Of a stretch of DNA of 64,000 nt, positions 2,981 to 62,332 are shown piece by piece. The position numbers and the translations under genes were made by a program. The notes beneath the pieces are model-generated. The model did not search any database and was not told the DNA's origin. It saw nothing but the letters and a program-made list of their open reading frames with translations. How positions within the stretch are numbered: the stretch's first letter is position 1; the number at the start of each line of letters is the position of its first letter. Source of the stretch: Eledone cirrhosa (taxonomy: Eukaryota); assembly GCA_964016885.1 (NCBI GenBank), contig OZ024759.1, forward strand, positions 27,032,001 to 27,096,000, written 5' to 3'.

Positions 2981-3339
2981 GTTGTTTATTATGTAATTAA
3001 ATAGCTCTGTACAATACATAGAGCATTCTTCTTTTCTTTACCTTTTCTATGGAAATACAAGAACAAACATGTAAATATATATATATATGTATATACATAA
3101 ACAAGACTGTTATTGCTCCAACCAGTCTATTTACCTTTGATAACTATCCTAAATATAAATACACCTATACCATACATACATATATCATATATGTTTTTGA
3201 TGCCGTGGTATAGCAGAGATAAGCAAGAAGAGAAAAGAAAATGAAAAGGAGAAAAAAAAAGAAGTAAGAAGTCGGGGGAGGGACAGACACTTCACCCCAG
3301 TCTAAGTGGTCCCTCAGCCGCAACCTGTGGAAGAAACTT

Positions 3340-3530
3340 AAAAGCGTTACCTCGGAGCAAGGCCAGAGACACCTGCTACAATAGTCGCCCCTCCTCATGA
3401 GGCTCCTGTCATCTTTCCTCCCGACTTTATGGAGGAAATCAGCAGTACAGGGACCAAGTATGGCAGAGGTCTCAATGGAGTGGAAGAGGTGAGTCAGGCC
3501 TTGGTACTATCTTACTATCCTCTGCATTGC
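3340..3530 (-). mobile_element. CRE-like non-LTR retrotransposon 3' fragment (restriction-like endonuclease tail), decayed
   Basis: Manual translation with frameshifts: AEDSK..YQGLTHLF..IETSAILGPCTADFLHKVGRK..TG..EG.LL*QVSLALLRGNAF. This matches the E-T-x-G ... SLAxxRGNA C-terminus of CRE-clade proteins. Confidence 0.7.
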
Positions 3531-4482: not shown

Positions 4483-4567
4483 TTATGTATATATATTTAT
4501 ATCTAGAGATAAGAAGAAAACTGAAAGAAAGAAAAGAAAAAAAATGAGACCTTATATGTAACCCATG

Positions 4568-5541
4568 TTACAACTCAATATATATATATTTGGGTTGTAA
4601 CATATTCCCGCCGGTGAAATAAAAATTTTAATAGAAAAACGGCGGGAATATATGTTACAACCCAATCTATATATATTTGAGTTGTAACATATATTCCCGC
4701 CGTTGAAATAAAAATTTTAATAGAAAAACGGCGGGAATATATGTTACAATCCAATCTAGATATATTTGGGTTGTAACATATATTCCCGCCGTTGAAATAA
4801 AAATTTTAATAGAAAACCGGCGGGAATATATGTTACAACCCAATCTATATATATTTGGGATGTAACATATATTCCCGCCGTTGAAATAAAAGTTTTAATA
4901 GAAAAACGGCGGGAATATATGTTGCAACCCAATCTACATATATTTGGGTTGTAACATATATTCCCGCCGTTGAAATAAAAATTTTAATAGAAATACGGCG
5001 GGAATATATGTTACAACCCAATCTATATATGTTTGGGTTGTAACATATATTCCCGCCGTTTTTCTATTAAAATTTTTATTTCAACGGCGGGAATATATGT
5101 TACAATCCAAATATATATAGATTGGGTTGTAACATATATTCCCGCCGTTTTTCTATTAAAATTTTTATTTCAACGGCGGGAATATATGTTACAACCCAAA
5201 TATTTATAGATAGGGTTGTAACATATATTCCCGCCATTTTTCTATTAAAATTTTTATTTCGACGGCGGGAATATGTTACAACCCAAATATATATAGATTG
5301 GGTTGTAACATATATTCCCGCCGTTTTTCTATTAAAATTTTTATTTCAACGGCGGGAATATATGTTACAACTCAAATATATATAGATTGGGTTGTAACAT
5401 ATATTCCCGCCGTTTTTCTATTAAAATATTTATTTCAACGGCGGGAATATATGTTACAACCCAAAAATATGTAGATTGGGTTGTAACATATATTCTCGCC
5501 GTTTTTCTATTAAAATTTTTATTTCACCGGCGGGAATATAT
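4568..5541. repeat. Array of ~89-bp hairpin units with a central orientation switch (about 11 units)
   Basis: Unit gggttgtaacatatattcccgccgtt-loop-aacggcgggaatatatgttacaaccc-spacer starts at ~4592, 4679, 4768, 4857, 4946; loops are reverse-complemented at ~5035, 5124, 5213, 5300, 5389, 5478. Confidence 0.95.
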
Positions 5542-5970: not shown

Positions 5971-7439
5971 ATATACATAAACAAGACTGTTATTGCTCCA
6001 ACCAGTCTATTTATCTTTGATAACTATCCTAGATATAAATACACCTATACCATACATACATATATCATATATGTTTTTGATGCCGTGGTATAGCAGAGAT
6101 AAGCAAGAAGAGAAAAGAAAATGAAAAGGAGAAAAAAAAAGAAGTAAGAAGTCGGGGGAGGGACAGACACTTCACCCCAGTCTAAGTGGTCCCTCAGCCG
6201 CAACCTGTGGAAGAAACGTAAAAGCGTTACCTCAGAGCAAGGCCAGAGACACCTGCAACAATAGTCGCCCCTCCTCATGAGGCTCCTGTCGTCTTTCCTC
6301 CCGACTTTATGAAGGAAATCAGCAGTACAGGGACCAAGTATGGCAGAGGTCTCAATGGAGTGGAAGAGGTGAGTCAGGCCTTGGTACTATCTTACTATCC
6401 TCTGCATTGCGGGGTGTGGAGCCTAGGTTTGTGGCTGTAGCTATATTTGAACTTTTATATGAAATTTCAGTTTTATTTTTTTCACATCATAAAACTTAAT
6501 CTTAGTCTTTTGCAGCTCATCTTGTTTCATCTCGCAGCACACGATTTGGGAACCACTGCTCTAGAGATAGAAAAAGTATATTTTATGCAGGACTTCCCTG
6601 AGACATAAAAACTATTTCCAGAGATCGACATGGGTAGAAAGGTTGAGAAATGCTGCACAATGTTCTTTGGTTTTTGTTCACCTTTAAATAATCATGTATA
6701 AAATATCGGGTGTGCAAGATTTCATGAAAAGGTATAACATTATTTATGCTGATCTTGCAGGGACTAGCTCCAATTGAGAGTTGTACCAATTCCCACTAAA
6801 CTCGAAACTCCTGGACAATATATACATATCTTTATAAGTTCCTGTGTATTGTGTCGTTGTATAATGAAACATAAATACATACCATGCATGTCAGTCAGAT
6901 TTGAACTCACTATATTTGGCGTTTTATAGATATAATTTGTTTGTTAAAACAATTGATTAAATAATAACTAAATAAAATTAATTCTACAATCCTGGATAGG
7001 GAATGAACTTATAACTTCATAATAGAAGCCATCTATTCGAGCAGTATTGCCATCTAAGCCACCAGGTTACTTACAGAACTTCATTCAAATATAAAATATA
7101 AAATATATGCCAGACATAGTGAGTTCGAATCTGACTGATTAGTTGGTCATTGTCCCAGCCAACAGTTTAAATCGCCAACCAGTAGGTGACATCGACTAGG
7201 TTGGGAAAACTTGGTTAAGTAGCTCCAGTTATTGCTACGTTAGACATATTCAAGACTTATCGACACCGAATGGAAGAAAGGTAAAGTTGAACTCAGAGTA
7301 AAGAACTGGAAAAATACTGCAAAGAATTCTATCTGATGTTCTAACAATTCTACCAAATTACCTTATGTATATATATTTATATCTAGAGATAAGAAGAAAA
7401 CTGAAAGAAAGAAAAATGAGACCTTATATGTAACCCATG
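5563..7439 (+). repeat. Direct repeat of 2743-4567 (Helitron N-fragment, CRE tail, hAT end, MITE, SINE)
   Basis: ORF pairs 3165/6045 and 3703/6583 are offset by 2880; scattered substitutions and a 30-bp indel distinguish the copies. Confidence 0.95.
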
Positions 7440-7989: not shown

Positions 7990-8277
7990 TTTAAAAAACA
8001 TGTCCCCCTTTAATATAAAAACAATCCGAGTCTTGTAAAAGTGTTATTACTGTAATATAAAGTAGAAACCCTTTATTTAAACAAAGCTGAGATGCAGCGA
8101 TCATCAAAGCAAACCCCAAAATGTAAACAAACTTCTCGCAGGTGCTGGCAGATACACGATAACATGTGTATACGAAGTGTAACAGGGAGTTGGGTCGTAT
8201 TATATGACTTTCAAATTGACCCCTATTATATTCAAATTATCCCCTGTGGGGCGTGCACCCCACGTTGAGAATCCCTC
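7990..8277 (-). mobile_element. hAT-derived MITE remnant
   Basis: Reverse strand begins gagggattctcaacgtggggtgcacgcccc (CAGGGGTTCTCAAC-type end); a fuller forward homolog with both ends lies at 56248-56580. Confidence 0.6.
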
Positions 8278-9164
8278 ATAAATAAATATATGTGAGTGTG
8301 TTGCTATGACTGCTATTTCTAGCAGGTTTACTGCAGTCCTGTAGACGCACAACAAAAACCGGAAGTGGCAGCCATTAAAAAACTTTGGCTTAAAATCAGG
8401 CAAAAGTTTTTTAACAATTTGCCAAGAAAGATAACTCTTGTCTTACTTAATCGCAAAAATCGAGGCAAAAAATGTTGCGGGTGTGCAGTTTGTTTGGTGT
8501 ATTTGACTGCTATTTCTAGCATATATGGACACTTTAGAAATAGCAGCGAAACACGGGAAACATAAGAAAGAAGGACACACACGTATATATATATACATAT
8601 ATATATGCACAGATATATACATTTAAATATATATATTTATATATACATATATATATGCACAGATATATACATTTAAATATATATATTTATATATACATAC
8701 ACGCGCGCACACACACCTATACGTAGATATGGGTGTGTGTATAGCTGGTATATATATATATATGTATGGGTGAGTGTATAGCTGGTATATATATATATAT
8801 ATATATATAGGTGTGTGTCCTTCTTTCTGCTGTTTTCCGTTTTTCGCTGCTATTTCTAAAGTGTCCATACATGCTAGAAATAGCAGTCAAATACACCAAA
8901 CAAACTGCACACCCGCAAAATTTTTGCCTCGATTTTTGCGATTAAGTAAGACAAGAGTTATCTTTCTTGGCAAATTGTTAAAAAACTTTTGCCTGATTTT
9001 AAGCCAAAGTTTTTTAATGGCTGCCACTTCCGGTTTTTGTTGTGCGTCTACAGGACTGCAGTAAACCTGCTAGAAATAGCAGTCATAGCAACACACTCAC
9101 ATATATTTATTTATGAGGGATTCTCAACGTGGGGTGCACGCCCCACAGGGGATAATTTGAATAT
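8228..9164. repeat. Long inverted repeat, ~350-bp arms around a TA/CA spacer
   Basis: 8228-8580 is the near-perfect reverse complement of 8812-9164; mirror ORFs 8200..8403(-) and 8989..9255(+) share their first 59 residues. Confidence 0.95.
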
Positions 9165-9762
9165 CCCCCTCTTTATATCAATTAGCACTAACTCTCTCCC
9201 TCTCTATATCTACTACACGGCACTCTCTTCCAATACCCCTCTCTATATGAAGTAACACCAAACTCTCCCCCTCTCTATATATTAAGCACTAAGTCAGGAA
9301 TTTTTTTCTTCTTTCGTGCAGAGAGAGTAAAGTTGATTAAATCTACTGCAGTGAATTACTGGTATTTTATTTAATAAAAATTAAAATTTACTATTTGTCT
9401 TCGTTTAATTTTCGTTTTTCTTTACATAGTTTCGTTTCGTTAAATGTCTCCAGAATTTGTTTTTACTTTTACCGGATATTGAAGGTGTAAACTTGGTGTT
9501 GTCTAGAAACGTGTTAGAAATATTTTTCTTTTAATTGTGAAGAATTTAACCGCAAAGTAAGTTTTTTTTACTGTTTATTTGTGGCTGGGACAACGTATGG
9601 TATGTGTTAATGTAAATGGTGAAGGTTTAAAGATTCTTTTTACAACTGAAAATCAGTTTGTTGTTGCTGCTAATTACTTAACGCATGGAATAGATTAAAA
9701 AAATACAGGATTGTTTCTCGGAAGAGAGAAAGAAGAAACAACAAATCACAGAAGCGGGTAGC

Positions 9763-9938
9763 ACACACATTTGGGACCACATACAACACAAAAACAGGTA
9801 ATCCACACATCTGGGACCACATACAACACACCAGCAGGTAATACATACATCTAGGACCACATAAGCAGGTAATACACACATCTAGGACCACATACAACAC
9901 ACAAGCAGGTAATACACACATCTAGGACGACATACAAC
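9763..9938 (+). repeat. ~40-bp minisatellite, about 4.5 copies
   Basis: ggaccacatacaacacacaagcaggtaatacacacatcta recurs at ~9774, 9814, 9854, 9885, 9925. Confidence 0.85.
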
Positions 9939-9980
9939 CAAAGGCAGGCGAAAGGGGTGGACAAACGAGCTGCTACTAGA

Positions 9981-10240
9981 TCAAAAGATAACAGTATCGC
10001 GAGGAGCACTGGGAAACCTCTCTAATGATTTTTTTAGGCAAGCCAGCACGTCTGCAGCGTTACCTCGGGCGATGGCGAGGCTGAGGAGCTGGAACAACCA
10101 AGTGCCCTCACGAGCTTCACCAGTCACCTTCGTCAGGCTAGCCGCCAGTGAAGATAGGAATCTCGCAGTCAGTATCCCGACTCCTTCAAACGCCACAGGC
10201 TGGAAAATGTAGTTGGCCGACAGATCACAGTATTACTTAA
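9981..10240 (-). mobile_element. CRE-like non-LTR retrotransposon 3' fragment (restriction-like endonuclease C-terminus)
   Basis: K*YCDLSANYIFQPVAFEGVGILTARFLSSLAASLTKVTGEAREGTWLFQLLSLAIARGNAADVL follows the KxxKY..FxPxAxE..TG..R..L.Q.LSLAIxRGNA pattern of CRE elements. Confidence 0.85.
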
Positions 10241-10264: not shown

Positions 10265-10335
10265 GAGGGGCGTGCAACAGGCGGCCCGCGGGCCACAATC
10301 GAGCCCACCTGACCAGTCAGAGTGGCCCGCAATGA
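10265..10335 (+). mobile_element. hAT transposon left end
   Basis: gtctaaag target-like 8-mer, then gaggggcgtgcaacaggcggcccgcgggccaca..tggcccgc, the GCGGCCCGCGGGCC subterminal motif typical of Charlie/SPIN-like hATs. Confidence 0.7.
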
Positions 10336-10384: not shown

Positions 10385-10752
10385 AGTTGACCTATACTAA
10401 AGGACTTCACTGATAGGGTTATATGTGTTATAATTTCCCAGTTGACCTATACTAAAGGACTTCACTGATAGGGTTATATGTGTTATAGTTTCCCAGTTGA
10501 CCTATACTAAAGGGCTTCACTGATAGAGTTATATGTGTTATAGTTTCCCAGAGGGCTTCACTGATAGGGTTATATGTGTTATAGTTTCCCAGTTGACCTA
10601 TACTAAAGGACTTCACTGATAGGGTTATATGTGTTATAGTTTCCCAGTTGACCTATACTAAAGGACTTCACTGATAGGGTTATATGTGTTATCGTTTCCC
10701 AGTTGACCTATACTAAAGGGCTTCACTGATAGAGTTATATGTGTTATAGTTT
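10385..10752 (+). repeat. 55-bp minisatellite, about 6.7 copies
   Basis: agttgacctatactaaaggacttcactgatagggttatatgtgttatagtttccc at 10385, 10440, 10495 etc., with one truncated unit. Same array at ~36707 and ~46820. Confidence 0.95.
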
Positions 10753-10992
10753 GAAACAAACTACCTGCATCTGTTATTATACTTTTATAACACCGCTATA
10801 TTACCTACATGAAAGAGGTAAATATTTATTTCTCTTGTCTTCTTAAATGTATAGAACATTTTTCTTATATATATTCTTAACATAGCTAGGACCGTTTATT
10901 ATTTACTAGTCTCTACTCCTAGGACTTTGCTGGTCTCATGTCCCCTCCATCAACACACACTCGGTAGAAAGCTGGTCGTCGGATGTAAAGTG

Positions 10993-11130
10993 GCCCTGAT
11001 TACAGGTCTAGTATTGAAGCCTTTCGGCTTGAGCCTTGCTGATGCCGACACAGTTCCTGTGGTAGTTTTGGTAGCACAGGTGACATTTTATTGTGTTTAG
11101 GTACCGGCTAGTGCGGACACAGAGAGCACA
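10993..11130 (-). pseudogene. Degenerate PHD-type zinc finger
   Basis: Manual translation CALCVRTSRYLNTIKCHLCYQNYHRNCVGISKAQAERLQY*TCNQG has C4HC3 spacing, with TAG at the conserved Trp and GGC at the last Cys position. Confidence 0.75.
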
Positions 11131-11315
11131 ACCAGGTGGTGAGCTGGCAACGACCAAGTGTAGAGGGCCAGCTTTGAAATTCGAGCGACGGAGTGAACTA
11201 GTAAAAGAGGCAGGGTAAGCAGCATTGGTTCTAACGGTGGGACTAGAACGGAGGTTGGGTGGTGCTGGGGGTGGGCTAACAGCTAACAGTTGTAGGAGTG
11301 GTGGGGGTTTGCTAG

Positions 11316-12923
11316 GATTAATTTTTACATCTGTCTGTGAACTCTTGAAAAAGCAACATACAATTGTCCAGGGTTAAATACTTGCTCAGGGAGGAACAGA
11401 CCCACTTTATCATGTATTTGACCATGGTTCTTGTTGATTGTCATGGCATATGACAGTCTTAATGGAAACTGGGGTCTTTCCAAAGTAAAAGGGATGTTGG
11501 CACCACTGGGGGATAACTTCAGTCTTGGGATCAAAACACACCTGCCCATGAAAGGACCATAGATATGAGAAGCTTTGATAAAATGTTTATGCAGTTCTAC
11601 TACTTCTAATCTTGTGCCATTACATAATCTGTTCTGGATTGAAATATTCCATAGAAGCATTATTATTGATCCTGCTTATAATTGGAGTTTGTGAGGCGGC
11701 ATCCCAGAAGGTGTAAGCAAGTTCATTTAGCTTGAACCAGGCAGCAAGGGTCCCTGCATTTCTACCACAACCTGAGCATTGCCTCTTTGAAAGTAAACTC
11801 TGTTTGTTCTCCAGGTGTGTGGCTAGGCTGTACACTGTATGTGATGCACCATGAAGCTTAAATTCCGAGAGACACGACACTGCTTCTGGCTGAGACACAT
11901 ACCTGCAACAAAGATAGGTTCTTATTTCATCATGGTTGTGTTGGTTCTGAGCCTCATTAGGTAATGCATTATTCGTTACTTCTATAGATGTACAATCATG
12001 CCCCATGTAACATATTTAAAGAGGTACTTGACACTTTTTACAGAAGCGCAAACTTCAACATTAATATGTGCACAATATTTCTTAAGCAAAAAGGCATTAA
12101 ATGGCATAACATTCCTGTTATCTACTGAATGTCATCCAATTTACACTGCAGTTCCTGTCTTGCACCTCCTGTACTCTGGGTATCCATTTAGGTTCAATAA
12201 TGTTTCCCTTCTGTAGGTTTTTGGATAGTTCTTTTTGAAAAATCCATTTTGTATAAATGGGGGAAAAGGGTTTCCAGAACCACATGGCCTGTGGATCATA
12301 AACTTTTAAACCTGCTCATGTAGTACTGGATCATCTTCCAATGCAGGTATTTCTGCTGACACGATTCTGTCAATGTCTTCTCTGTTTCTTATCTTGTCTT
12401 CATTTTTTAAGGCTCAGTGTTATCATCTGTTTAGATAATTCATTAAACCATTATACTCATCCACTCACAATTGGGCTTGATTGTTCCTCAAATATTGAAG
12501 CCTGCATCCCTCTACTTTCATATAGGCATCCACTAAATACTGCTAAAATAATTTACCTGCCCTATATATCGCACTAAATCCTCCTCTATATGCTATACAG
12601 TATATGTAATACTCCTGCATTGTCAGTCTATTGCAAACACAGGTCCTACATTCCTCTCCATGGCACTATGCCACCAAAATTCACCATTATCGGTCGGTCA
12701 TGAGGTCCAAGTGGCATGAATTATGTGGTATTTTCTGAGGAGGATGGTCTTTAGGAAAGATGATAATATCTCTTTGTACAGGTGGTGTGCCCTCAATCCC
12801 CCACAAAACAACAGCTATCATTACTAGTTGGTAAATTAGAGCAGCTCATATCTGATCCTCTTCTAAATCTTAATTCACAGTTCTGTACACGACAATTTTC
12901 TCTTCTTGCACTTTGCTGTTTGA
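11316..12923 (-). pseudogene. Helitron Rep/Hel (Rep remnant plus PIF1-helicase C-terminus), internally deleted
   Basis: GKLF*QYLVDAYMKVEGCRL, DIDRIVSAEIP, MIHRPCG, GYPEYRR, AHINVEVCASVKSVKYLFKYV, RYVSQPEA, TPSGMPPHKLQLK, LCNGTRL, QFPLRLSYAMTINKNHGQ, GQLYVAFSRV; several stops and frameshifts. Confidence 0.95.
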
Positions 12924-14217: not shown

Positions 14218-14417
14218 NNNNNNNNNNNNNNNNNNNNNNNNNNNNNNNNNNNNNNNNNNNNNNNNNNNNNNNNNNNNNNNNNNNNNNNNNNNNNNNNNNN
14301 NNNNNNNNNNNNNNNNNNNNNNNNNNNNNNNNNNNNNNNNNNNNNNNNNNNNNNNNNNNNNNNNNNNNNNNNNNNNNNNNNNNNNNNNNNNNNNNNNNNN
14401 NNNNNNNNNNNNNNNNN
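14218..14417. other. Assembly gap (200 N)
   Basis: Run of N of round length, so probably a placeholder; true size and orientation across it are unknown. Confidence 0.99.
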
Positions 14418-32516: not shown

Positions 32517-35500
32517 ATATACATAAACAAGACTGTTATTGCTCCAACCAGTCTATTTATCTTTGATAACTATCCTAGATATAAATACACCTATACCATA
32601 CATACATATATCATATATGTTTTTGATGCCGTGGTATAGCAGAGATAAGCAAGAAGAGAAAAGAAAATGAAAAGGAGAAAAAAAAAGAAGTAAGAAGTCG
32701 GGGGAGGGACAGACACTTCACCCCAGTCTAAGTGGTCCCTCAGCCGCAACCTGTGGAAGAAACGTAAAAGCGTTACCTCAGAGCAAGGCCAGAGACACCT
32801 GCAACAATAGTCGCCCCTCCTCATGAGGCTCCTGTCGTCTTTCCTCCCGACTTTATGAAGGAAATCAGCAGTACAGGGACCAAGTATGGCAGAGGTCTCA
32901 ATGGAGTGGAAGAGGTGAGTCAGGCCTTGGTACTATCTTACTATCCTCTGCATTGCGGGGTGTGGAGCCTAGGTTTGTGGCTGTAGCTATATTTGAACTT
33001 TTATATGAAATTTCAGTTTTATTTTTTTCACATCATAAAACTTAATCTTAGTCTTTTGCAGCTCATCTTGTTTCATCTCGCAGCACACGATTTGGGAACC
33101 ACTGCTCTAGAGATAGAAAAAGTATATTTTATGCAGGACTTCCCTGAGACATAAAAACTATTTCCAGAGATCGACATGGGTAGAAAGGTTGAGAAATGCT
33201 GCACAATGTTCTTTGGTTTTTGTTCACCTTTAAATAATCATGTATAAAATATCGGGTGTGCAAGATTTCATGAAAAGGTATAACATTATTTATGCTGATC
33301 TTGCAGGGACTAGCTCCAATTGAGAGTTGTACCAATTCCCACTAAACTCGAAACTCCTGGACAATATATACATATCTTTATAAGTTCCTGTGTATTGTGT
33401 CGTTGTATAATGAAACATAAATACATACCATGCATGTCAGTCAGATTTGAACTCACTATATTTGGCGTTTTATAGATATAATTTGTTTGTTAAAACAATT
33501 GATTAAATAATAACTAAATAAAATTAATTCTACAATCCTGGATAGGGAATGAACTTATAACTTCATAATAGAAGCCATCTATTCGAGCAGTATTGCCATC
33601 TAAGCCACCAGGTTACTTACAGAACTTCTTTCAAATATAAAATATAAAATATATGCCAGACATAGTGAGTTCGAATCTGACTGATTAGTTGGTCATTGTC
33701 CCAGCCAACAGTTTAAATCGCCAACCAGTAGGTGACATCGACTAGGTTGGGAAAACTTGGTTAAGTAGCTCCAGTTATTGCTACGTTAGACATATTCAAG
33801 ACTTATCGACACCGAATGGAAGAAAGGTAAAGTTGAACTCAGAGTAAAGAACTGGAAAAATACTGCAAAGAATTCTATCTGATGTTCTAACAATTCTACC
33901 AAATTACCTTATGTATATATATTTATATCTAGAGATAAGAAGAAAACTGAAAGAAAGAAAAATGAGACCTTATATGTAACCCATGACCGGGATTGAAACC
34001 GAAACCATGACTACCACCATCTCTGGTATCACCCACCAGACCACCATGAAAGATACAAACATCTGCTTTTTTAATATTTATAAGCCTACTTTCAATATTA
34101 AAGTAATTAACATGTGGTGTTGTTCATGCCTTTCTCTATGTTATTGGTAAAAAATAAAGTATTTAAACCTCAAATTTTGTTATTCAAATATGCTTGCTTA
34201 TGTAATTATAAATGTCGCAGAATACACACACATATATAGATGTGAAAATATTCAGGACCCCAACGGCTGTGCTACTGCCGTTTCGACATCTATATATATA
34301 TCTTTTAGTCCTAGGCTCTTTCAGCGCAGAAAGAATTCTCCAATGATCACAACCAGCTAATGGTGCCCAGTGGAAGCACTTTAGTCTAATTATAACCCCA
34401 ACGATCACGATTAGCGGCGGCTTTTTCGAGTCTGAGGTTGACTGCCAGATATATATATATATCTATATATATATATATTTTTTTTTATACTTTGCTAGAA
34501 TCCCGGAGAACAACAGAAAGATGCTGAGTTCAGAGTTTAAAAAACATGTCCCCCTTTAATATAAAAACAATCCGAGTCTTGTAAAAGTGTTATTACTGTA
34601 ATATAAAGTAGAAACCCTTTATTTAAACAAAGCTGAGATGCAGCGATCATCAAAGCAAACCCCAAAATGTAAACAAACTTCTCGCAGGTGCTGGCAGATA
34701 CACGATAACATGTGTATACGAAGTGTAACAGGGAGTTGGGTCGTATTATATGACTTTCAAATTGACCCCTATTATATTCAAATTATCCCCTGTGGGGCGT
34801 GCACCCCACGTTGAGAATCCCTCATAAATAAATATATGTGAGTGTGTTGCTATGACTGCTATTTCTAGCAGGTTTACTGCAGTCCTGTAGACGCACAACA
34901 AAAACCGGAAGTGGCAGCCATTAAAAAACTTTGGCTTAAAATCAGGCAAAAGTTTTTTAACAATTTGCCAAGAAAGATAACTCTTGTCTTACTTAATCGC
35001 AAAAATCGAGGCAAAAAATGTTGCGGGTGTGCAGTTTGTTTGGTGTATTTGACTGCTATTTCTAGCATATATGGACACTTTAGAAATAGCAGCGAAACAC
35101 GGGAAACATAAGAAAGAAGGACACACACGTATATATGTATACATATATATATGCACAGATATATACATTTAAATATATATATTTATATATACATACACGC
35201 GCGCACACACACCTATACGTAGATATGGGTGTGTGTATAGCTGGTATATATATATATGTATGGGTGAGTGTATAGCTGGTATATATATATATATAGGTGT
35301 GTGTCCTTCTTTCTGCTGTTTTCCGTTTTTCGCTGCTATTTCTAAAGTGTCCATACATGCTAGAAATAGCAGTCAAATACACCAAACAAACTGCACCCCA
35401 CGTTGAGAATCCCTCATAAATAAACATATATTTATTTATGAGGGATTCTCAACGTGGGGTGCACGCCCCACAGGGGATAATTTGAATATCCCCCTCTTTA

Positions 35501-36302
35501 TATCAATTAGCACTAACTCTCTCCCTCTCTATATCTACTACACGGCACTCTCTTCCAATACCCCTCTCTATATGAAGTAACACCAAACTCTCCCCCTCTC
35601 TATATATTAAGCACTAAGTCAGGAATTTTTTTCTTCTTTCGTGCAGAGAGAGTAAAGTTGATTAAATCTACTGCAGTGAATTACTGGTATTTTATTTAAT
35701 AAAAATTAAAATTTACTATTTGTCTTCGTTTAATTTTCGTTTTTCTTTACATAGTTTCGTTTCGTTAAATGTCTCCAGAATTTGTTTTTACTTTTACCGG
35801 ATATTGAAGGTGTAAACTTGGTGTTGTCTAGAAACGTGTTAGAAATATTTTTCTTTTAATTGTGAAGAATTTAACCGCAAAGTAAGTTTTTTTTACTGTT
35901 TATTTGTGGCTGGGACAACGTATGGTATGTGTTAATGTAAATGGTGAAGGTTTAAAGATTCTTTTTACAACTGAAAATCGGTTTGTTGTTGCTGCTAATT
36001 ACTTAACGCATGGAATAGATTAAAAAAATACAGGATTGTTTCTCGGAAGAGAGGAAGAAGAAACAAATCACAGAAGCGGGTAGCACACACATTTGGGACC
36101 ACATACAACACAAAAACAGGTAATCCACACATCTGGGACCACATACAACACACCAGCAGGTAATACATACATCTAGGACCACATAAGCAGGTAATACACA
36201 CATCTAGGACCACATACAACACACAAGCAGGTAATACCCACATCTAGGACGACATACAACCAAAGGCAGGCGAAAGGGGTGGACAAACGAGCTGCTACTA
36301 GA

Positions 36303-36562
36303 TCAAAAGATAACAGTATCGCGAGGAGCACTGGGAAACCTCTCTAATGATTTTTTTAGGCAAACCAGCACGTCTGCAGCGTTACCTCGGGCGATGGCGA
36401 GGCTGAGGAGCTGGAACAACCAAGTGCCCTCACGAGCTTCACCAGTCACCTTCGTCAGGCTAGCCGCCAGTGAAGATAGGAATCTCGCAGTCAGTATCCC
36501 GACTCCCCCAAACGCCACAGGCTGGAAAATGTAGTTGGCCGACAGATCACAGTATTACTTAA
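36303..36562 (-). mobile_element. CRE-like endonuclease tail, copy 2
   Basis: ORF 36303..36518 contains LSLAIARGNAADVL. Confidence 0.85.
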
Positions 36563-37637
36563 CAGTGATAGATATTCTGTCTAAAGGAGGGGCGTGCAAC
36601 AGGCGGCCCGCGGGCCACAATCGAGCCCACCTGACCAGTCAGAGTGGCCCGCAATGACTCTTGTAGGCTTATTTAGAATTTTTTCCATACCCGTAATACT
36701 TCTGTTAGTTGACCTATACTAAAGGACTTCACTGATAGGGTTATATGTGTTATAATTTCCCAGTTGACCTATACTAAAGGACTTCACTGATAGGGTTATA
36801 TGTGTTATAGTTTCCCAGTTGACCTATACTAAAGGGCTTCACTGATAGAGTTATATGCGTTATAGTTTCCCAGAGGGCTTCACTGATAGGGTTATATGTG
36901 TTATAGTTTCCCAGTTGACCTATACTAAAGGACTTCACTGATAGGGTTATATGTGTTATAGTTTCCCAGTTGACCTATACTAAAGGACTTCACTGATAGG
37001 GTTATATGTGTTATCGTTTCCCAGTTGACCTATACTAAAGGGCTTCACTGATAGAGTTATATGTGTTATAGTTTGAAACAAACTACCTGCATCAGTTATT
37101 ATACTTTTATAACACCGCTATATTACCTACATGAAAGAGGTAAATATTTATTTCTCTTGTCTTCTTAAATGTATAGAACATTTTTCTTATATATATTCTT
37201 AACATAGCTAGGACCGTTTATTATTTACTAGTCTCTACTCCTAGGACTTTGCTGGTCTCATGTCCCCTCCATCAACACACACTCGGTAGAAAGCTGGTCG
37301 TCGGATGTAAAGTGGCCCTGATTACAGGTCTAGTATTGAAGCCTTTCGGCTTGAGCCTTGCTGATGCCGACAGAGTTCCTGTGGTAGTTTTGGTAGCACA
37401 GGTGACATTTTATTGTGTTTAGGTACCGGCTAGTGCGGACACAGAGAGCACAACCAGGTGGTGAGCTGGCAACGACCAAGTGTAGAGGGCCAGCTTTGAA
37501 ATTCGAGCGACGGAGTGAACTAGTAAAAGAGGCAGGGTAAGCAGCATTGGTTCTAACGGTGGGACTAGAACGGAGGTTGGGTGGTGCTGGGGGTGGGCTA
37601 ACAGCTAACAGTTGTAGGAGTGGTGGGGGTTTGCTAG

Positions 37638-40253
37638 GATTAATTTTTACATCTGTCTGTGAACTCTTGAAAAAGCAACATACAATTGTCCAGGGTTAAA
37701 TACTTGCTCAGGGAGGAACAGACCCACTTTATCATGTATTTGACCATGGTTCTTGTTGATTGTCATGGCATATGACAGTCTTAATGGAAACTGGGGTCTT
37801 TCCAAAGTAAAAGGGATGTTGGCACCACTGGGGGATAACTTCAGTCTTGGGATCAAAACACACCTGCCCATGAAAGGACCATAGATATGAGAAGCTTTGA
37901 TAAAATGTTTATGCAGTTCTACTACTTCTAATCTTGTGCCATTACATAATCTGTTCTGGATTGAAATATTCCATAGAAGCATTATTATTGATCCTGCTTA
38001 TAATTGGAGTTTGTGAGGCGGCATCCCAGAAGGTGTAAGCAAGTTCATTTAGCTTGAACCAGGCAGCAAGGGTCCCTGCATTTCTACCACAACCTGAGCA
38101 TTGCCTCTTTGAAAGTAAACTCTGTTTGTTCTCCAGGTGTGTGGCTAGGCTGTACACTGTATGTGATGCACCATGAAGCTTAAATTCCGAGAGACACGAC
38201 ACTGCTTCTGGCTGAGACACATACCTGCAACAAAGATAGGTTCTTATTTCATCATGGTTGTGTTGGTTCTGAGCCTCATTAGGTAATGCATTATTCGTTA
38301 CTTCTATAGATGTACAATCATGCCCCATGTAACATATTTAAAGAGGTACTTGACACTTTTTACAGAAGCGCAAACTTCAACATTAATATGTGCACAATAT
38401 TTCTTAAGCAAAAAGGCATTAAATGGCATAACATTCCTGTTATCTACTGAATGTCATCCAATTTACACTGCAGTTCCTGTCTTGCACCTCCTGTACTCTG
38501 GGTATCCATTTAGGTTCAATAATGTTTCCCTTCTGTAGGTTTTTGGATAGTTCTTTTTGAAAAATCCATTTTGTATAAATGGGGGAAAAGGGTTTCCAGA
38601 ACCACATGGCCTGTGGATCATAAACTTTTAAACCTGCTCATGTAGTACTGGATCATCTTCCAATGCAGGTATTTCTGCTGACACGATTCTGTCAATGTCT
38701 TCTCTGTTTCTTATCTTGTCTTCATTTTTTAAGGCTCAGTGTTATCATCTGTTTAGATAATTCATTAAACCATTATACTCATCCACTCACAATTGGGCTT
38801 GATTGTTCCTCAAATATTGAAGCCTGCATCCCTCTACTTTCATATAGGCATCCACTAAATACTGCTAAAATAATTTACCTGCCCTATATATCGCACTAAA
38901 TCCTCCTCTATATGCTATACAGTATATGTAATACTCCTGCATTGTCAGTCTATTGCAAACACAGGTCCTACATTCCTCTCCATGGCACTATGCCACCAAA
39001 ATTCACCATTATCGGTCGGTCATGAGGTCCAAGTGGCATGAATTATGTGGTATTTTCTGAGGAGGATGGTCTTTAGGAAAGATGATAATATCTCTTTGTA
39101 CAGGTGGTGTGCCCTCAATCCCCCACAAAACAACAGCTATCATTACTAGTTGGTAAATTAGAGCAGCTCATATCTGATCCTCTTCTAAATCTTAATTCAC
39201 AGTTCTGTACACGACAATTTTCTCTTCTTGCACTTTGCTGTTTGAGATGAAACAAGATAGCAATGTCCATAACATTACATGTCAGAATTATTAGCCACAG
39301 GGGCAGAGATGTCCATAACATTACATGTCAGAATTATTAGCCACCGGGGCAGAGATGTCCATAACATTACATGTCAGAATTATTAGCCACAGGGGCAGAG
39401 ATGTCCATAACATTACATGACAGAATTATTAGCCACAGGGGCAGAGATGACCATAACATTACATGACAGATTTATTAGCCACAGGTGCAGAGATGACCAT
39501 AACATTACATGACAGAATTATTAACCACAGGGGCAGAGATGACCATAACATTACATGACAATTATTAGCCCCAGGAGCAGATATGTCCATAACATTACAT
39601 GACAGAGTTTCATCTCGCGCTCTCTCTCTCTCGTTTCATCTCGCTCTCTCTCTCTCTCGTTTCATCTCTGTCTTCCTCTCTCTCATTTCATCTCTGTCTT
39701 CCTCTCTCTCGTTCCATCTCTCTCTTCCTCTCTCTCGTTCCATCTCTCTCTTCCTCTCTCTCGTTTCATCACTCTCTCTCGTTTCATCTCTATTTCTCTC
39801 TCTCGTTTCATCTGTCTCTCTCTCTGTCGTTTCATCTCCCTCTATCTCTCTCTCGCTCTCTCATTTCATCTCTCTCTCCCTCTCGTTTCATCTCGCTGTC
39901 TCTCTCCTGTTTCATCTCGCTCTCTCTCTCCTGTTTCATCTCGCTCTCTAGTCTCGTTTCCTCTCTCTCTCATTTCATCTCGCTCTCTCTCTCTCATTTC
40001 ATCTCGCTCTCACTCTCTCTCATTTCATCTCGCTCTCTCTCTCTCATTTCATCTCGCTCTCACTCTCTCATTTCATCTCGCTCTCACTCTCTCTCATTTC
40101 ATCTCGCTCTCTCTCTCTCTCTCGTTTCATCTCGCTCTCTCTCTCTCATTTCATGTCGCTCTCACTCTCTCTCATTTCATCTCGCACTCACTCTCTCATT
40201 TCATCTCGCTCTCTCTCTCTCTCGTTTCATCTCGCTCTCTCTGTCTCATTTCA

Positions 40254-40290
<37 letters not shown>

Positions 40291-42642: not shown

Positions 42643-42748
42643 GGAATAATTATATTCTGTTGTTTATTATGTAATTAAATAGCTCTGTACAATACATAGA
42701 GCATTCTTCTTTTCTTTACCTTTTCTATGGAAATACAAGAACAAACAG

Positions 42749-42780
<32 letters not shown>

Positions 42781-45700: not shown

Positions 45701-46415
45701 TCCCCCTCTCTATATATTAAGCACTAAGTCAGGAATTTTTTTCTTCTTTCGTGCAGAGAGAGTAAAGTTGATTAAATCTACTGCAGTGAATTACTGGTAT
45801 TTTATTTAATAAAAATTAAAATTTACTATTTGTCTTCGTTTAATTTTCGTTTTTCTTTACATAGTTTCGTTTCGTTAAATGTCTCCAGAATTTGTTTTTA
45901 CTTTTACCGGATATTGAAGGTGTAAACTTGGTGTTGTCTAGAAACGTGTTAGAAATATTTTTCTTTTAATTGTGAAGAATTTAACCGCAAAGTAAGTTTT
46001 TTTTACTGTTTATTTGTGGCTGGGACAACGTATGGTATGTGTTAATGTAAATGGTGAAGGTTTAAAGATTCTTTTTACAACTGAAAATCAGTTTGTTGTT
46101 GCTGCTAATTACTTAACGCATGGAATAGATTAAAAAAATACAGGATTGTTTCTCGGAAGAGAGAAAGAAGAAACAACAAATCACAGAAGCGGGTAGCACA
46201 CACATTTGGGACCACATACAACACAAAAACAGGTAATCCACACATCTGGGACCACATACAACACACCAGCAGGTAATACATACATCTAGGACCACATAAG
46301 CAGGTAATACACACATCTAGGACCACATACAACACACAAGCAGGTAATACACACATCTAGGACGACATACAACCAAAGGCAGGCGAAAGGGGTGGACAAA
46401 CGAGCTGCTACTAGA

Positions 46416-46675
46416 TCAAAAGATAACAGTATCGCGAGGAGCACTGGGAAACCTCTCTAATGATTTTTTTAGGCAAGCCAGCACGTCTGCAGCGTTACCT
46501 CGGGCGATGGCGAGGCTGAGGAGCTGGAACAACCAAGTGCCCTCACGAGCTTCACCAGTCACCTTCGTCAGGCTAGCCGCCAGTGAAGATAGGAATCTCG
46601 CAGTCAGTATCCCGACTCCCCCAAACGCCACAGGCTGGAAAATGTAGTTGGCCGACAGATCACAGTATTACTTAA
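46416..46675 (-). mobile_element. CRE-like endonuclease tail, copy 3
   Basis: ORF 46416..46631. Confidence 0.85.
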
Positions 46676-47750
46676 CAGTGATAGATATTCTGTCTAAAGG
46701 AGGGGCGTGCAACAGGCGGCCCGCGGGCCACAATCGAGCCCACCTGACCAGTCAGAGTGGCCCGCAATGACTCTTGTAGGCTTATTTAGAATTTTTTCCA
46801 TACCCGTAATACTTCTGTTAGTTGACCTATACTAAAGGACTTCACTGATAGGGTTATATGTGTTATAATTTCCCAGTTGACCTATACTAAAGGACTTCAC
46901 TGATAGGGTTATATGTGTTATAGTTTCCCAGTTGACCTATACTAAAGGGCTTCACTGATAGAGTTATATGTGTTATAGTTTCCCAGAGGGCTTCACTGAT
47001 AGGGTTATATGTGTTATAGTTTCCCAGTTGACCTATACTAAAGGACTTCACTGATAGGGTTATATGTGTTATAGTTTCCCAGTTGACCTATACTAAAGGA
47101 CTTCACTGATAGGGTTATATGTGTTATCGTTTCCCAGTTGACCTATACTAAAGGGCTTCACTGATAGAGTTATATGTGTTATAGTTTGAAACAAACTACC
47201 TGCATCAGTTATTATACTTTTATAACACCGCTATATTACCTACATGAAAGAGGTAAATATTTATTTCTCTTGTCTTCTTAAATGTATAGAACATTTTTCT
47301 TATATATATTCTTAACATAGCTAGGACCGTTTATTATTTACTAGTCTCTACTCCTAGGACTTTGCTGGTCTCATGTCCCCTCCATCAACACACACTCGGT
47401 AGAAAGCTGGTCGTCGGATGTAAAGTGGCCCTGATTACAGGTCTAGTATTGAAGCCTTTCGGCTTGAGCCTTGCTGATGCCGACACAGTTCCTGTGGTAG
47501 TTTTGGTAGCACAGGTGACATTTTATTGTGTTTAGGTACCGGCTAGTGCGGACACAGAGAGCACAACCAGGTGGTGAGCTGGCAACGACCAAGTGTAGAG
47601 GGCCAGCTTTGAAATTCGAGCGACGGAGTGAACTAGTAAAAGAGGCAGGGTAAGCAGCATTGGTTCTAACGGTGGGACTAGAACGGAGGTTGGGTGGTGC
47701 TGGGGGTGGGCTAACAGCTAACAGTTGTAGGAGTGGTGGGGGTTTGCTAG

Positions 47751-50366
47751 GATTAATTTTTACATCTGTCTGTGAACTCTTGAAAAAGCAACATACAATT
47801 GTCCAGGGTTAAATACTTGCTCAGGGAGGAACAGACCCACTTTATCATGTATTTGACCATGGTTCTTGTTGATTGTCATGGCATATGACAGTCTTAATGG
47901 AAACTGGGGTCTTTCCAAAGTAAAAGGGATGTTGGCACCACTGGGGGATAACTTCAGTCTTGGGATCAAAACACACCTGCCCATCAAAGGACCATAGATA
48001 TGAGAAGCTTTGATAAAATGTTTATGCAGTTCTACTACTTCTAATCTTGTGCCATTACATAATCTGTTCTGGATTGAAATATTCCATAGAAGCATTATTA
48101 TTGATCCTGCTTATAATTGGAGTTTGTGAGGCGGCATCCCAGAAGGTGTAAGCAAGTTCATTTAGCTTGAACCAGGCAGCAAGGGTCCCTGCATTTCTAC
48201 CACAACCTGAGCATTGCCTCTTTGAAAGTAAACTCTGTTTGTTCTCCAGGTGTGTGGCTAGGCTGTATACTGTATGTGATGTACCATGAAGCTTAAATTC
48301 CGAGAGACACGACACTGCTTCTGGCTGAGACACATACCTGCAACAAAGATAGGTTCTTATTTCATCATGGTTGTGTTGGTTCTGAGCCTCATTAGGTAAT
48401 GCATTATTCGTTACTTCTATAGATGTACAATCATGCCCCATGTAACATATTTAAAGAGGTACTTGACACTTTTTACAGAAGCGCAAACTTCAACATTAAT
48501 ATGTGCACAATATTTCTTAAGCAAAAAGGCATTAAATGGCATAACATTCCTGTTATCTACTGAATGTCATCCAATTTACACTGCAGTTCCTGTCTTGCAC
48601 CTCCTGTACTCTGGGTATCCATTTAGGTTCAATAATGTTTCCCTTCTGTAGGTTTTTGGATAGTTCTTTTTGAAAAATCCATTTTGTATAAATGGGGGAA
48701 AAGGGTTTCCAGAACCACATGGCCTGTGGATCATAAACTTTTAAACCTGCTCATGTAGTACTGGATCATCTTCCAATGCAGGTATTTCTGCTGACACGAT
48801 TCTGTCAATGTCTTCTCTGTTTCTTATCTTGTCTTCATTTTTTAAGGCTCAGTGTTATCATCTGTTTAGATAATTCATTAAACCATTATACTCATCCACT
48901 CACAATTGGGCTTGATTGTTCCTCAAATATTGAAGCCTGCATCCCTCTACTTTCATATAGGCATCCACTAAATACTGCTAAAATAATTTACCTGCCCTAT
49001 ATATCGCACTAAATCCTCCTCTATATGCTATACAGTATATGTAATACTCCTGCATTGTCAGTCTATTGCAAACACAGGTCCTACATTCCTCTCCATGTCA
49101 CTATGCCACCAAAATTCACCATTATGGGTCGGTCATGAGGTCCAAGTGGCATGAATTATGTGGTATTTTCTGAGGAGGATGGTCTTTAGGAAAGATGATA
49201 ATATCTCTTTGTACAGGTGGTGTGCCCTCAATCCCCCACAAAACAACAGCTATCATTACTAGTTGGTAAATTAGAGCAGCTCATATCTGATCCTCTTCTA
49301 AATCTTAATTCACAGTTCTGTACACGACAATTTTCTCTTCTTGCACTTTGCTGTTTGAGATGAAACAAGATAGCAATGTCCATAACATTACATGTCAGAA
49401 TTATTAGCCACAGGGGCAGAGATGTCCATAACATTACATGTCAGAATTATTAGCCACCGGGGCAGAGATGTCCATAACATTACATGTCAGAATTATTAGC
49501 CACAGGGGCAGAGATGTCCATAACATTACATGACAGAATTATTAGCCACAGGGGCAGAGATGACCATAACATTACATGACAGATTTATTAGCCACAGGTG
49601 CAGAGATGACCATAACATTACATGACAGAATTATTAACCACAGGGGCAGAGATGACCATAACATTACATGACAATTATTAGCCCCAGGGGCAGATATGTC
49701 CATAACATTACATGACAGAGTTTCATCTCGCGCTCTCTCTCTCTCGTTTCATCTCGCTCTCTCTCTCTCTCGTTTCATCTCTGTCTTCCTCTCTCTCATT
49801 TCATCTCTGTCTTCCTCTCTCTCGTTCCATCTCTCTCTTCCTCTCTCTCGTTCCATCTCTCTCTTCCTCTCTCTCGTTTCATCACTCTCTCTCGTTTCAT
49901 CTCTATTTCTCTCTCTCGTTTCATCTGTCTCTCTCTCTGTCGTTTCATCTCCCTCTATCTCTCTCTCGCTCTCTCATTTCATCTCTCTCTCCCTCTCGTT
50001 TCATCTCGCTCTCTCTCTCCTGTTTCATCTCGCTCTCTCTCTCCTGTTTCATCTCGCTCTCTAGTCTCGTTTCCTCTCTCTCTCATTTCATCTCGCTCTC
50101 TCTCTCTCATTTCATCTCGCTCTCACTCTCTCTCATTTCATCTCGCTCTCTCTCTCTCATTTCATCTCGCTCTCACTCTCTCATTTCATCTCGCTCTCAC
50201 TCTCTCTCATTTCATCTCGCTCTCTCTCTCTCTCTCGTTTCATCTCGCTCTCTCTCTCTCATTTCATGTCGCTCTCACTCTCTCTCATTTCATCTCGCAC
50301 TCACTCTCTCATTTCATCTCGCTCTCTCTCTCTCTCGTTTCATCTCGCTCTCTCTGTCTCATTTCA

Positions 50367-50398
<32 letters not shown>

Positions 50399-52754: not shown

Positions 52755-52860
52755 GGAATAATTATATTCTGTTGTTTATTATGTAATTAAATAGCTCTGT
52801 ACAATACATAGAGCATTCTTCTTTTCTTTACCTTTTCTATGGAAATACAAGAACAAACAG

Positions 52861-52892
<32 letters not shown>

Positions 52893-59305: not shown

Positions 59306-59870
59306 TTGAAACAAACTACCCGCATCAGTTATTATACTTTTATAACACCGCTATATTACGTACATGAAAGAGGTAAATATTTATTTCTCTTGTCTTCTTA
59401 AATGTATAGAACATTTTTCTTATATATATTCTTAACATAGCTAGGACCGTTTATTATTTACTAGTCTCTACTCCTAGGACTTTGCTGGTCTCATGTCCCC
59501 TCCATCAACACACACTCGGTAGAAAGCTGGTCGTCGGAGGTAAAGTGGCCCTGATTACAGGTCTAGTATTGAAGCCTTTCGGCTTGAGCCTTGCTGATGC
59601 CGACAGAGTTCCTGTGGTAGTTTTGGTAGCACAGGTGACATTTTATTGTGTTTAGGTACCGGCTAGTGCGGACACAGAGAGCACAACCAGGTGGTGAGCT
59701 GGCAACGACCAAGTGTAGAGGGCCAGCTTTGAAATTCGAGCGACGGAGTGAACTAGTAAAAGAGGCAGGGTAAGCAGCATTGGTTCTAACGGTGGGACTA
59801 GAACGGAGGTTGGGTGGTGCTGGGGGTGGGCTAACAGCTAACAGTTGTAGGAGTGGTGGGGGTTTGCTAG

Positions 59871-62231
59871 GATTAATTTTTACATCTGTATGTGAACTCT
59901 TGAAAAAGCAACATACAATTGTCCAGGGTTAAATACTTGCTCAGGGAGGAACAGACCCACTTTATCATGTATTTGACCATGGTTCTTGTTGATTGTCATG
60001 GCATATGACAGTCTTAATGGAAACTGGGGTCTTTCCAAAGTAAAAGGGATGTTGGCACCACTGGGGGCTAACTTCAGTCTTGGGATCAAAACACACCTGC
60101 CCATCAAAGGACCATAGATATGAGAAGCTTTGATAAAATGTTTATGCAGTTCTACTACTTCTAATCTTGTGCCATTACATAATCTGTTCTGGATTGAAAT
60201 ATTCCATAGAAGCATTAGTATTGATCCTGCTTTTAATTGGAGTTTGTGAGGCGGCATCCCAGAAGGTGTAAGCAAGTTCATTTAGCTTGAACCAGGCAGC
60301 AAGGGTCCCTGCATTTCTACCACAACCTGAGCATTGCCTCTTTGAAAGTAAACTCTGTTTGTTCTCCAGGTGTGTGGCTAGGCTGTATAATGTATGTGAT
60401 GTACCATGAAGCTTAAATTCGGAGAGACACGACACTGCTTCTGGCTGAGACACATACCTGCAACAAAGATAGGTTCTTATTTCATCATGGTTGTGTTGGT
60501 TCTGAGCCTCATTAGGTAATGCATTATTCGTTACTTCTATAGATGTACAATCATGCCCCATGTAACATATTTAAAGAGGTACTTGACACTTTTTACAGAA
60601 GCGCAAACTTCAACATTAATATGTGCACAATATTTCTTAAGCAAAAAGGCATTAAATGGCACAACATTCCTGTTATCTACTGAATGTCATCCAATTTACA
60701 CTGCAGTTCCTGTCTTGCACCTCCTGTACTCTGGGTATCCATTTAGGTTCAATAATGTTTCCCTTCTGTAGGTTTTTGGATAGTTCTTTTGGAAAAATCC
60801 ATTTTGTATAAATGGGGGAAAAGGGTTTCCAGAACCACATGGCCCGTGGATCATAAACTTTTAAACCTGCTCATATAGTACTTGATCATCTTCCAATGCA
60901 GGTATTTCTGCTGACACGATTCTGTCAATGTCTTCTCTGTTTCTTATCTTGTCTTCATTTCTTAAGGCTCAGTGTTATCATCTGTTTAGATAATTCATTA
61001 AACCATTATACTCATCCACTCACAATTGGGCTTGATTGTTCCTCAAATATTGAAGCCTGCATCCCTCTACTTTCATATAGGCTTCCACTAAATACTGCTA
61101 AAATAATTTACCTGCCCTATATATCGCACTAAATCCTCCTCTATATGCTATACTGTATATGTAATACTCCTGCATTGTCAGTCTATTGCAAACACAGGTC
61201 CTGCATTCCTCTCCATGTCACTATGCCACCAAAATTCACCATTATGGGTCGGTCATGAGGTCCAAGTGGCATGAATTATGTGATATTTTCTGAGGAGGAT
61301 GGTCTTTAGGAAAGATGATAATATCTCTTTGTACAGGTGGTCTGCCCTCAATCCCCCACAAAACAACAGCTATCATTACTAGTTGGTAAATTATAGCAGC
61401 TCATATCTGATCCTCTTCTAAATCTTAATTCACAGTTCTGTACACGACAATGTTCTCTTCTTGCACTTTGCTGTTTGATGCCATGCATTGTATTGTACAA
61501 TTCACATATGGATTACATTCATGCAACACCTCTCTTATCATAGCCATTTTTTGTGGTGAGCACTCATTATTTGTTGGTACTAGGGCGGTGGATTGGCAGT
61601 ATCGGTAGAGCGTCAGACACCATGCTTTGCAGCATAGGGTTATGGCCCTTTACGTTCTGGGTTCAAATCCCTCCAAGGTTGACTTTGTTTTCATCCTTAT
61701 GAGGTCGATAGAATAAAGTACCGGTAATTGCTGGCCTTGTGCCAGAAACAATTATTTGGTCGTACTTCCAATCTGTGCTACACACCTTCGTTCCCATCAA
61801 TAATATATAACTGGCCATATTGTGGTGTATTTTCTGCAGGTTACAGAGGTGGGGGTGTAGTGATATGTTTGACCGTGAATATGAAAGCTATACGGGCCTC
61901 TGCCGGGTGGTAACACCAAATGAAGTGAAATAAATGTAGTTTTAATTGCAGACGTTTCTGTGAAATCAACTGCTTCCTGGCCTCTTTCAAAGAGATTTCT
62001 CAGTCTCTCGGGGTATATTTGCAATGGTGGCAACACAGCCTTTACTTTATTACAACAGTTATTTTCATTTCTAAATTTCAAAGCTTCACAGTGATCACAC
62101 GAAACATTCATATCACTAATATGAAATTCTTCTAGATTTCCATTAATATTAATTGTTGGCCAATTTCTCTTATGACGCTCATTATCCATTCTTCTCTGTC
62201 TGAATGTTTTCCATTCTAAGTCTATTTGCAT
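59871..62231 (-). pseudogene. Helitron Rep/Hel pseudogene lacking the 2.6-kb insert (least disrupted copy)
   Basis: N-terminal Cys cluster, ECNPYV, MHGIKQQSARRE, YNLPTSND, Rep motif 3 and helicase tail are contiguous apart from the SINE at ~61583-61757. Confidence 0.95.
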
Positions 62232-62332
62232 GGAATAATTATATTCTGTTGTTTATTATGTAATTAAATAGCTCTGTACGATACATAGAGCATTCTTCTT
62301 TTCTTTACCTTTTCTATAGAAATACAAGAACA

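Follow-up and report, generated by a model that had tools for sequence, protein, structure and literature searches.

The PHD finger that lies one frameshift downstream of a Helitron helicase in Eledone cirrhosa is best read, with a probability of roughly 55%, as coming from the 5′ part of a CRE-like retrotransposon with a PHD, and is now part of a dead patchwork of Helitron and CRE sequence that has been amplified in tandem. The window analyzed is the 64,000-nt stretch of contig OZ024759.1 from 27,032,001 to 27,096,000; all positions below are window-based. The argument for this reading draws on the end of the Helitron at 11317, a change point in composition, overall and third-position GC, the missing Helitron tail, and features shared between fingers, together with seven PHD-bearing relatives, an ordered two-piece profile match, and three trees that group the tail with them. 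The label CRE is presumed from motif likeness, the trees here having no named CRE element.

The window consists of a tandem array rich in satellites, and contains an N gap at 14218-14417. The block containing the Helitron and PHD sequences is found in it four times, with 0-7 differences over 727 nt: beyond the copy described here, the junction and PHD recur, again on the minus strand, at 37315..37695 (copy B, offset +26322), 47428..47808 (copy C, +36435), and 59548..59928 (copy D, +48555, the most diverged of the four). The frameshift, stop, and Gly described below are common to all four, which must therefore be counted as one observation. A tandem unit of about 10.1 kb (35424-45186 and 45534-55298, 99.2% identical), made up of transposon debris and satellites, holds two of the block copies. 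A contig of this unit in sequencing run X1 has a depth of 1049, vs. 5-15 in diverged contigs, which hints at strong amplification of the unit in that organism.

Other repeats are conspicuous in the window. Between 12941 and 28000, arrays of a 46-bp minisatellite alternate with a GA-rich satellite in both orientations, and the Helitron is split at 12923 in copies A-C; an 89-bp tandem repeat (4565-5541, 11 copies) breaks up a Helitron N-terminal piece. A large palindromic element at 8228-9164, with perfect 244-nt arms, 139-nt inner arms, and an AT-repeat core, is MITE- or foldback-like. The short piece at 9329-9372 belongs to a very abundant repeat (loose ends in more than 1000 X11 reads per side) that is presumably SINE-like. 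On the minus strand at 6045-6386, and again near 3200-3500, a frame with ETSAILGP resembles, by eye, another RLE-element tail; the whole-window profile scan gave no match of the 6045-6386 frame to the CRE profiles.

The Helitron is dead. Remnants of a Rep region and of a Pif1-type helicase are both present, both decayed. The Rep region (11691..12923, minus strand) has many stops and frameshifts, and only copy D keeps the N-terminal part of the region in one piece (about 61479-62300), where Helitron_like_N matches with an E-value of 1.1e-6. The helicase (11317..11690, minus strand) is represented by its C-terminal part, from the 2B domain (Pif1_2B) to motif VI and DVKIN, and matches Helraiser (PDB 7lcc) with an E-value of 3.7e-31; a scan of all window frames for the motif I/II pattern came back empty. 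No Helitron termini (5′ TC, 3′ hairpin with CTRR) were seen among the 25 longest inverted-repeat pairs listed. Helitron relatives were absent from viral contigs and from phages; nine loci were found in metagenomes, one of them a Helitron (L001) and the remaining eight weak.

The helicase frame terminates GQLYVAFSRVHRQM-stop, following a frameshift near 11335-11332 that is consistent with a net loss of 4 nt. A diverged Helitron contig (X1 record 2, about 82% identical, with 69 other letters) is a net 4 nt longer over 11711-11317, which fits such a loss in the window, the places of the gaps not being displayed. The preliminary description took TDVKI, read in the shifted frame, for the usual continuation after motif VI, and Helraiser bears this out: it reads SRVRRACDVKV at this point, so that TDVKI is Helitron sequence and the frameshift is inside the Helitron. 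What follows is different. Helraiser ends 36 aa past motif VI, and L001 about 31 aa past it; with these two ends as the comparison, the conserved Helitron tail and its stop are absent after 11317 and were not found further downstream. Nothing in the PHD frame resembles the L001 tail, and neither of the two Helitron ends carries a PHD.

The frame itself was originally described as a shifted, stop-free run of about 120 codons with a PHD finger after the helicase, and this holds: on the minus strand, 11373-11011 has 121 codons without a stop, 3′ of the helicase, reading TDVKINPSKPPP and then C-x2-C-x11-C-x2-C-x4-H-x2-C. The first 13 or so codons overlap the helicase frame and have no separate meaning. 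At this composition a stop-free run of 111 codons has a chance probability of 0.017 in a given frame, or 0.045 when any of three will do; the figure for just the 62-codon linker is 0.155. This linker (11131..11316, minus strand) is Pro/Ser-rich, stop-free, and 55% GC, with no in-frame Met. It leads into a broken C4-H-C3 PHD finger (10993..11130, minus strand), which keeps seven of its eight zinc ligands: a TAG at 11010-11008 occupies the position of the conserved Trp, before ligand 7, and Gly (10995-10993) takes the place of ligand 8, the finger running on beyond the stop. A further 29 nt (10964..10992, minus strand) complete the PHD-bearing piece before an unrelated repeat, with loose ends at 10963 in X1 and X5 (X5 record 10). 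It is likely that no protein is made from this broken locus.

The suggested HMM check against PHD models came out in favor of a PHD, if below threshold: Pfam PHD (PF00628) matches with an E-value of 1.6e-4 and 22.1 bits (20.2 with the stop read through), under the curated cut-off of 24. A profile of the seven PHD-bearing retrotransposon proteins discussed below, scanned over the whole window, matches 11145-10993 with an iE of 1.4e-7. A word-index search with the window PHD peptide gave none among 342 candidates, and a full HMMER search gave three matches, of which two are multi-PHD proteins of a generic kind and the third is an unrelated repeat protein. The closest solved PHD structures are of the BPTF/DIDO/CXXC1 type.

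Copies of the finger with both residues intact occur elsewhere in the genome. At position 11009, 17 X1 contigs and 108 of 109 X11 reads have the base that gives Trp; at 10995, 10 X1 contigs and 105 of 107 X11 reads have the base that gives Cys. The X5 and X6 contigs retain the stop. The X11 reads come from diverged copies, judging by their few start places and at least 10 other differences, and at least 17 contigs of the single run X1 hold diverged copies of the piece. This points to a putative dispersed repeat family bearing a PHD, of which the array would carry a damaged member; contig depth is not copy number. The full set of C4-H-C3 ligands is, as predicted from these reads and contigs, a property of the family and not of the window copy.

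The putative junction between the Helitron and the foreign piece is placed at 11316..11317 (interval 11304-11321). Within 10964-12923 the best composition change point is 11316, none of 500 null sequences having one as strong, and the X1 record 2 alignment ends at 11317, its 250 further letters being unaligned and not displayed. Both are consistent with the Helitron ending at 11317, which is likely. Overall GC is 39% for the Helitron, compared with 52% for the PHD piece and 53% for the CRE tail. At third codon positions it is 28/46 for the PHD, 40/70 for the CRE tail, 161/446 for the Helitron, and 24/62 for the linker; the PHD differs from the Helitron (p 0.001) and not significantly from the tail (p 0.71), while the linker is like the Helitron (p 0.68), so that the jump in composition may partly be an amino-acid bias. 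CpG depletion also differs between the Helitron and the PHD piece (p 0.02), but is given little weight since the N-terminal part of the Helitron is equally CpG-rich. Two sets of X11 read ends, at 11323 and 11683, were considered as element ends and rejected: both are at AATT sites, and are likely library cuts.

A repetitive region of this kind, satellite-rich and with an N gap, might be suspected of having been misassembled at the junction. This is very improbable, and largely refuted by independent contigs of two other runs (X5 record 11 and X6 record 16, under two further species labels, from one study), which run through the junction ungapped, with 2 and 6 differences. The junction is thus taken to be real; both contigs also carry the frameshift.

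That frameshift is present in every junction seen (all four window copies and both contigs), with no in-frame or intact fusion among them, which counts against the reading put first in the preliminary description: a Helitron family that carried the linker and PHD after its helicase, as a C-terminal extension or a stably captured segment, the CRE tail being unrelated. Such a fusion would displace the conserved helicase tail of about 30 aa, and would have to account for the alignment of the diverged Helitron contig ending at 11317, and for a PHD whose third-position GC is unlike that of the Helitron. It does explain why TDVKI leads in frame into the PHD without a stop, why the linker has no Met and a Helitron-like third-position GC, and why contigs under two further species labels span the junction ungapped; the intact-PHD copies elsewhere in the genome are also compatible with it, their upstream neighbors being unseen. 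Coverage is ambiguous: summed X1 depth falls to 1098, near baseline, in the bin with the junction, vs. 2520 and 2612 in the flanking bins, but other Helitron bins are as low. An Atlas search with the helicase end gave helicase-fragment clusters only among the matches listed, and a PHD is found in none of the six listed of 30 (clusters of 83-144 aa fragments). In the literature, PHD is among the domains that HELIANO Table S11 gives as stably carried by Helitron-like elements; as far as the accessible part of that paper goes, the four domains likely to share an ORF with RepHel do not include it (PMC11417382). On balance a Helitron lineage of this kind seems unlikely: the absent tail, the alignment end at 11317, the change point at 11316, and the lack of an intact fusion all argue against it as the main reading.

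A related proposal borrows from both sides. A cephalopod Helitron lineage could have swapped its helicase tail for a linker and PHD of CRE-like retrotransposon origin and, for some time, moved as a RepHel-PHD fusion; this is held to be decidedly improbable. If true, the fusion would represent domain capture across transposon classes, by which a rolling-circle element would gain its own chromatin- or DNA-targeting module. No RepHel-PHD fusion was found in literature listings.

The preferred reading, a CRE-like origin for the PHD piece, depends on the second retrotransposon sequence nearby. The C-terminal end of a CRE-like RLE retrotransposon ORF lies at 9984..10234 on the minus strand, truncated at 10234 (profile iE 1e-16). 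Its sole homologue among 510 candidates is the Octopus vulgaris protein P0002, with 73% identity over 63 aa, and 432 X11 reads run beyond 10234 with other letters, whose hand translation matches the P0002 residues just upstream. Between the PHD piece and this tail are a fragment of a separate repeat (10783..10963, 33% GC; the alignment of X5 record 10 is confined to it, with different letters on either side) and a 55-bp minisatellite of about 6.9 copies (10385..10752). A GC-rich end at 10265-10335 on the minus strand, between minisatellite and tail, may correspond to the terminus of a hAT-type non-autonomous element, which it resembles. After the tail come 40-bp tandem repeats (9747..9948) with very high contig depth, which are possibly the 3′ UTR of the CRE-like element. 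No CRE relatives were found in viral contigs, and genome contigs gave one weak match (L010).

A search with P0002 yielded 40 longer proteins, and the alternative raised in the preliminary description, a PHD-bearing CRE, proved to have intact representatives among them: in seven of the 40, an N-terminal PHD is followed by an RT, a knuckle, and an RLE. By a motif scan covering all 40, six have a full N-terminal PHD; Pfam PHD was found in the same six among the 24 scanned, with three above the cut-off. The seventh is a cluster whose longer member, P0096, scores 28.5 bits, so that four of the seven intact relatives pass the 24-bit cut-off that the window finger falls short of. Of the proteins of at least 900 aa, seven of 19 are PHD proteins, with the chimeric P0025 left out of this count and of all trees. 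The seven are encoded by single ORFs of about 970-1045 aa, all with RVT_1 and a CCHC knuckle and six with RPDG..WD; their best PDB matches are R2 proteins. In other relatives the N-terminal slot is filled, largely by clade, by C2H2 (one), CCHC-type (seven), or CXC (one) modules (P0018, P0019, P0028, P0036, P0038, P0040, P0044, P0048, and P0050). P0112, from the cluster of P0020, was considered as a PHD carrier and not counted: it has no Pfam PHD, and matches the window peptide with an E-value of 0.048. This 1105-aa RT protein has two N-terminal Cys/His-rich fingers, PHD-like by eye, with a Ser/Thr-rich linker between them. Residues 1-200 of P0013 gave no Atlas match.

Several tests connect both window pieces to this PHD-first group. 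A profile of the whole group matches the window with just two of its segments (profile positions 12-62 and 902-977), on the same strand and in the same order in all four copies; by tblastn, P0014 and P0016 each match both the PHD piece and the tail. Trees were made from the C-terminal 300 aa with the PHD columns excluded, the window tail filling 23-25% of the columns. The seven PHD proteins form one supported group in them, which the tail joins with support of 98/92 when P0002 is included and 99 when it is not, and 99 in a 28-row subset under another model.

There are arguments against this assignment as well. Moving the tail into a non-PHD group is not rejected by an AU test (p 0.185), and profile scores for the tail are neutral: 54.9 bits on the PHD-group profile, vs. 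50.2 ± 8.7 (maximum 61.3) on 30 random non-PHD groups. P0002 is no different, with 206 on the PHD-group profile vs. 210.5 on the random groups. Among the sequences of this genome, no full-length CRE was seen. The linker is another difficulty: intact relatives have a Met 6-24 residues ahead of Cys1, and the window has none in 71. CRE tails are abundant among the sequencing-run contigs of this genome, so that the adjacency of PHD and tail could be due to chance.

The finger alone would not settle its origin: going by its scores, a PHD appears not to be diagnostic here, since the window finger overlaps with host PHDs. On leave-one-out CRE-PHD profiles it reaches 30-36 bits, compared with 47-72 for the CRE PHDs left out and at most 43 for host PHDs. 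BPTF scores 39.9. When the fingers are truncated before the stop, the ranges are 33-40 for the window, 36-61 for the left-out fingers, and 33-38 for the best host, a control chosen by its likeness to the window finger. It is conceivable that the patchwork, though likewise due to chance, took its PHD from elsewhere: from CR1/L2 LINE ORF1, from a Penelope-like element or a DNA transposon, or from a captured BPTF/DIDO-type host exon. PHDs are common in CR1/L2 ORF1, their phylogenies being described in the accessible text as unresolved (PMC4120745), and they also occur in Penelope-like and other elements (PMC8557442, likewise seen in part); the best database matches of the window peptide being generic PHD proteins, and the equal scores of host PHDs on the CRE-PHD profile, fit this too. 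A single host gene is harder to reconcile with the 17 or more contigs of diverged copies in one run, which better fit a dispersed repeat, and the window finger has neither the Trp nor the Asp found in BPTF and in both P0004 fingers. It shares with the CRE-like PHDs their ligand spacing, basic charge, and absence of Trp at His-2, and stands in the right order and on the same strand as a tail grouped with PHD-bearing CREs in three trees. Another donor is accordingly considered a possible source, though not a probable one.

If the PHD piece does come from a CRE-like element, CRE sequence would have landed in, or been joined to, the Helitron a few codons past motif VI, and the agreement of the PHD frame with that of the helicase would be fortuitous (1 in 3). 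The scan found no RT, knuckle, or first RLE motifs between the window PHD and the tail, only the two profile segments given above; about 2.5 kb of the CRE middle, including the RT, would have been lost or never present, with unrelated repeats now in the gap. The CRE 3′ end, about 760 bp downstream of the PHD piece, would belong to the same element, having arrived in one insertion or two, and the finished block would then have been amplified in tandem. As for a target duplication, the junction and the sequence after the CRE tail share only chance-level repeats of 6-8 nt. Resumption of the Helitron tail past the CRE 3′ end, near 9700 and with a target duplication, was tried and rejected (scores of 20-22, background 15.0 ± 3.6); with the failure of this test, a simple nested insertion is unsupported.

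The Trp two residues ahead of the His is an aromatic-cage residue of PHDs that read H3K4me3. The window finger has Asn there, and no Asp after Cys3; among the seven CRE-like fingers the Trp is found in none and the Asp in one, and all are basic (6-9 K/R vs. 0-4 D/E). H3K4me3 reading is thus unlikely, and the term "chromatin reader" used in the preliminary description is doubtful for the window and for all seven intact relatives; of the interpretation as a whole, the PHD identity, the TDVKI continuation, and the PHD-bearing CRE have stood, and the Helitron lineage with such a reader has found no support as the main reading. In all seven CRE-like PHDs an acidic residue comes shortly ahead of Cys1, which would still allow unmethylated H3K4 as a ligand. 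From its position, the PHD of the intact relatives is predicted to be an N-terminal target-binding module. It likely binds nucleic acid or unmodified chromatin rather than H3K4me3, where nucleic-acid binding is a guess, since in the accessible text of one review just two PHDs are noted to bind DNA, neither of them typical (PMC6222470).

As a locus, this is ordinary debris of nested repeats. The result that reaches beyond it is a supported group of RLE retrotransposons, intact and with a single ORF, whose proteins start with a Trp-less PHD (seven of the 40 relatives). RLE elements pick their targets via N-terminal domains, and are in development as gene-insertion tools; a PHD in this slot is therefore a testable alternative targeting module. 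No description of a PHD in CRE/RLE elements was found in the open literature. The search covered neither Repbase reports nor subscription journals, so that the group may already be known there.

The PHD is in general well described as an accessory transposon domain (PMC11417382, PMC4120745, PMC8557442, as far as their accessible parts show), and several known systems are close enough to compare with this one. The first is the Helitron (HLE1) RepHel protein, for which Helraiser is the solved example: the window helicase end matches it, including the DVK continuation, but has stops, most of the helicase deleted, a frameshift past motif VI, and the last 30 or so residues replaced. A PHD near a RepHel is not new in itself, being one of 20 domains in HELIANO Table S11 found to be stably carried by Helitron-like elements (PMC11417382). 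As in the window, the PHD in those cases is within 4 kb of the RepHel, but recurrence among autonomous-element copies was required as well, and the PHD is not named, in the part of the paper available, among the four domains that share the RepHel ORF (PMC11417382).

Two others are the PHD of host proteins and that of other LINEs. BPTF/DIDO/CXXC1-type PHDs have the same pattern in their C-terminal half as the window finger, but both the Trp at His-2 and the Asp that follows Cys3 in BPTF and the P0004 fingers are missing from the window finger. A PHD-bearing ORF1 in CR1/L2 LINEs was reportedly described by Kapitonov and Jurka in 2003. It is likewise a PHD at the front end of a non-LTR protein, proposed to help in genome targeting (PMC4120745, in the text accessible), but CR1/L2 elements are APE-type LINEs, and the relatives found here encode an RLE in a single ORF.

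The last is the CRE group and other RLE non-LTR elements, of which R2 is the solved relative (PDB 9nl3, 9dou, 9nl2). PHDs go unmentioned in the accessible main texts of two accounts of RLE elements (PMC4640811, PMC5678591). The intact relatives likewise have a single ORF with an RT, a CCHC knuckle, and an RLE, and the window keeps the typical C-terminal end. Where RLE LINEs have been described with a zinc finger and a Myb domain at the N-terminus (PMC5678591, PMC4640811, in the same texts), the relatives found here have a C4-H-C3 PHD instead.
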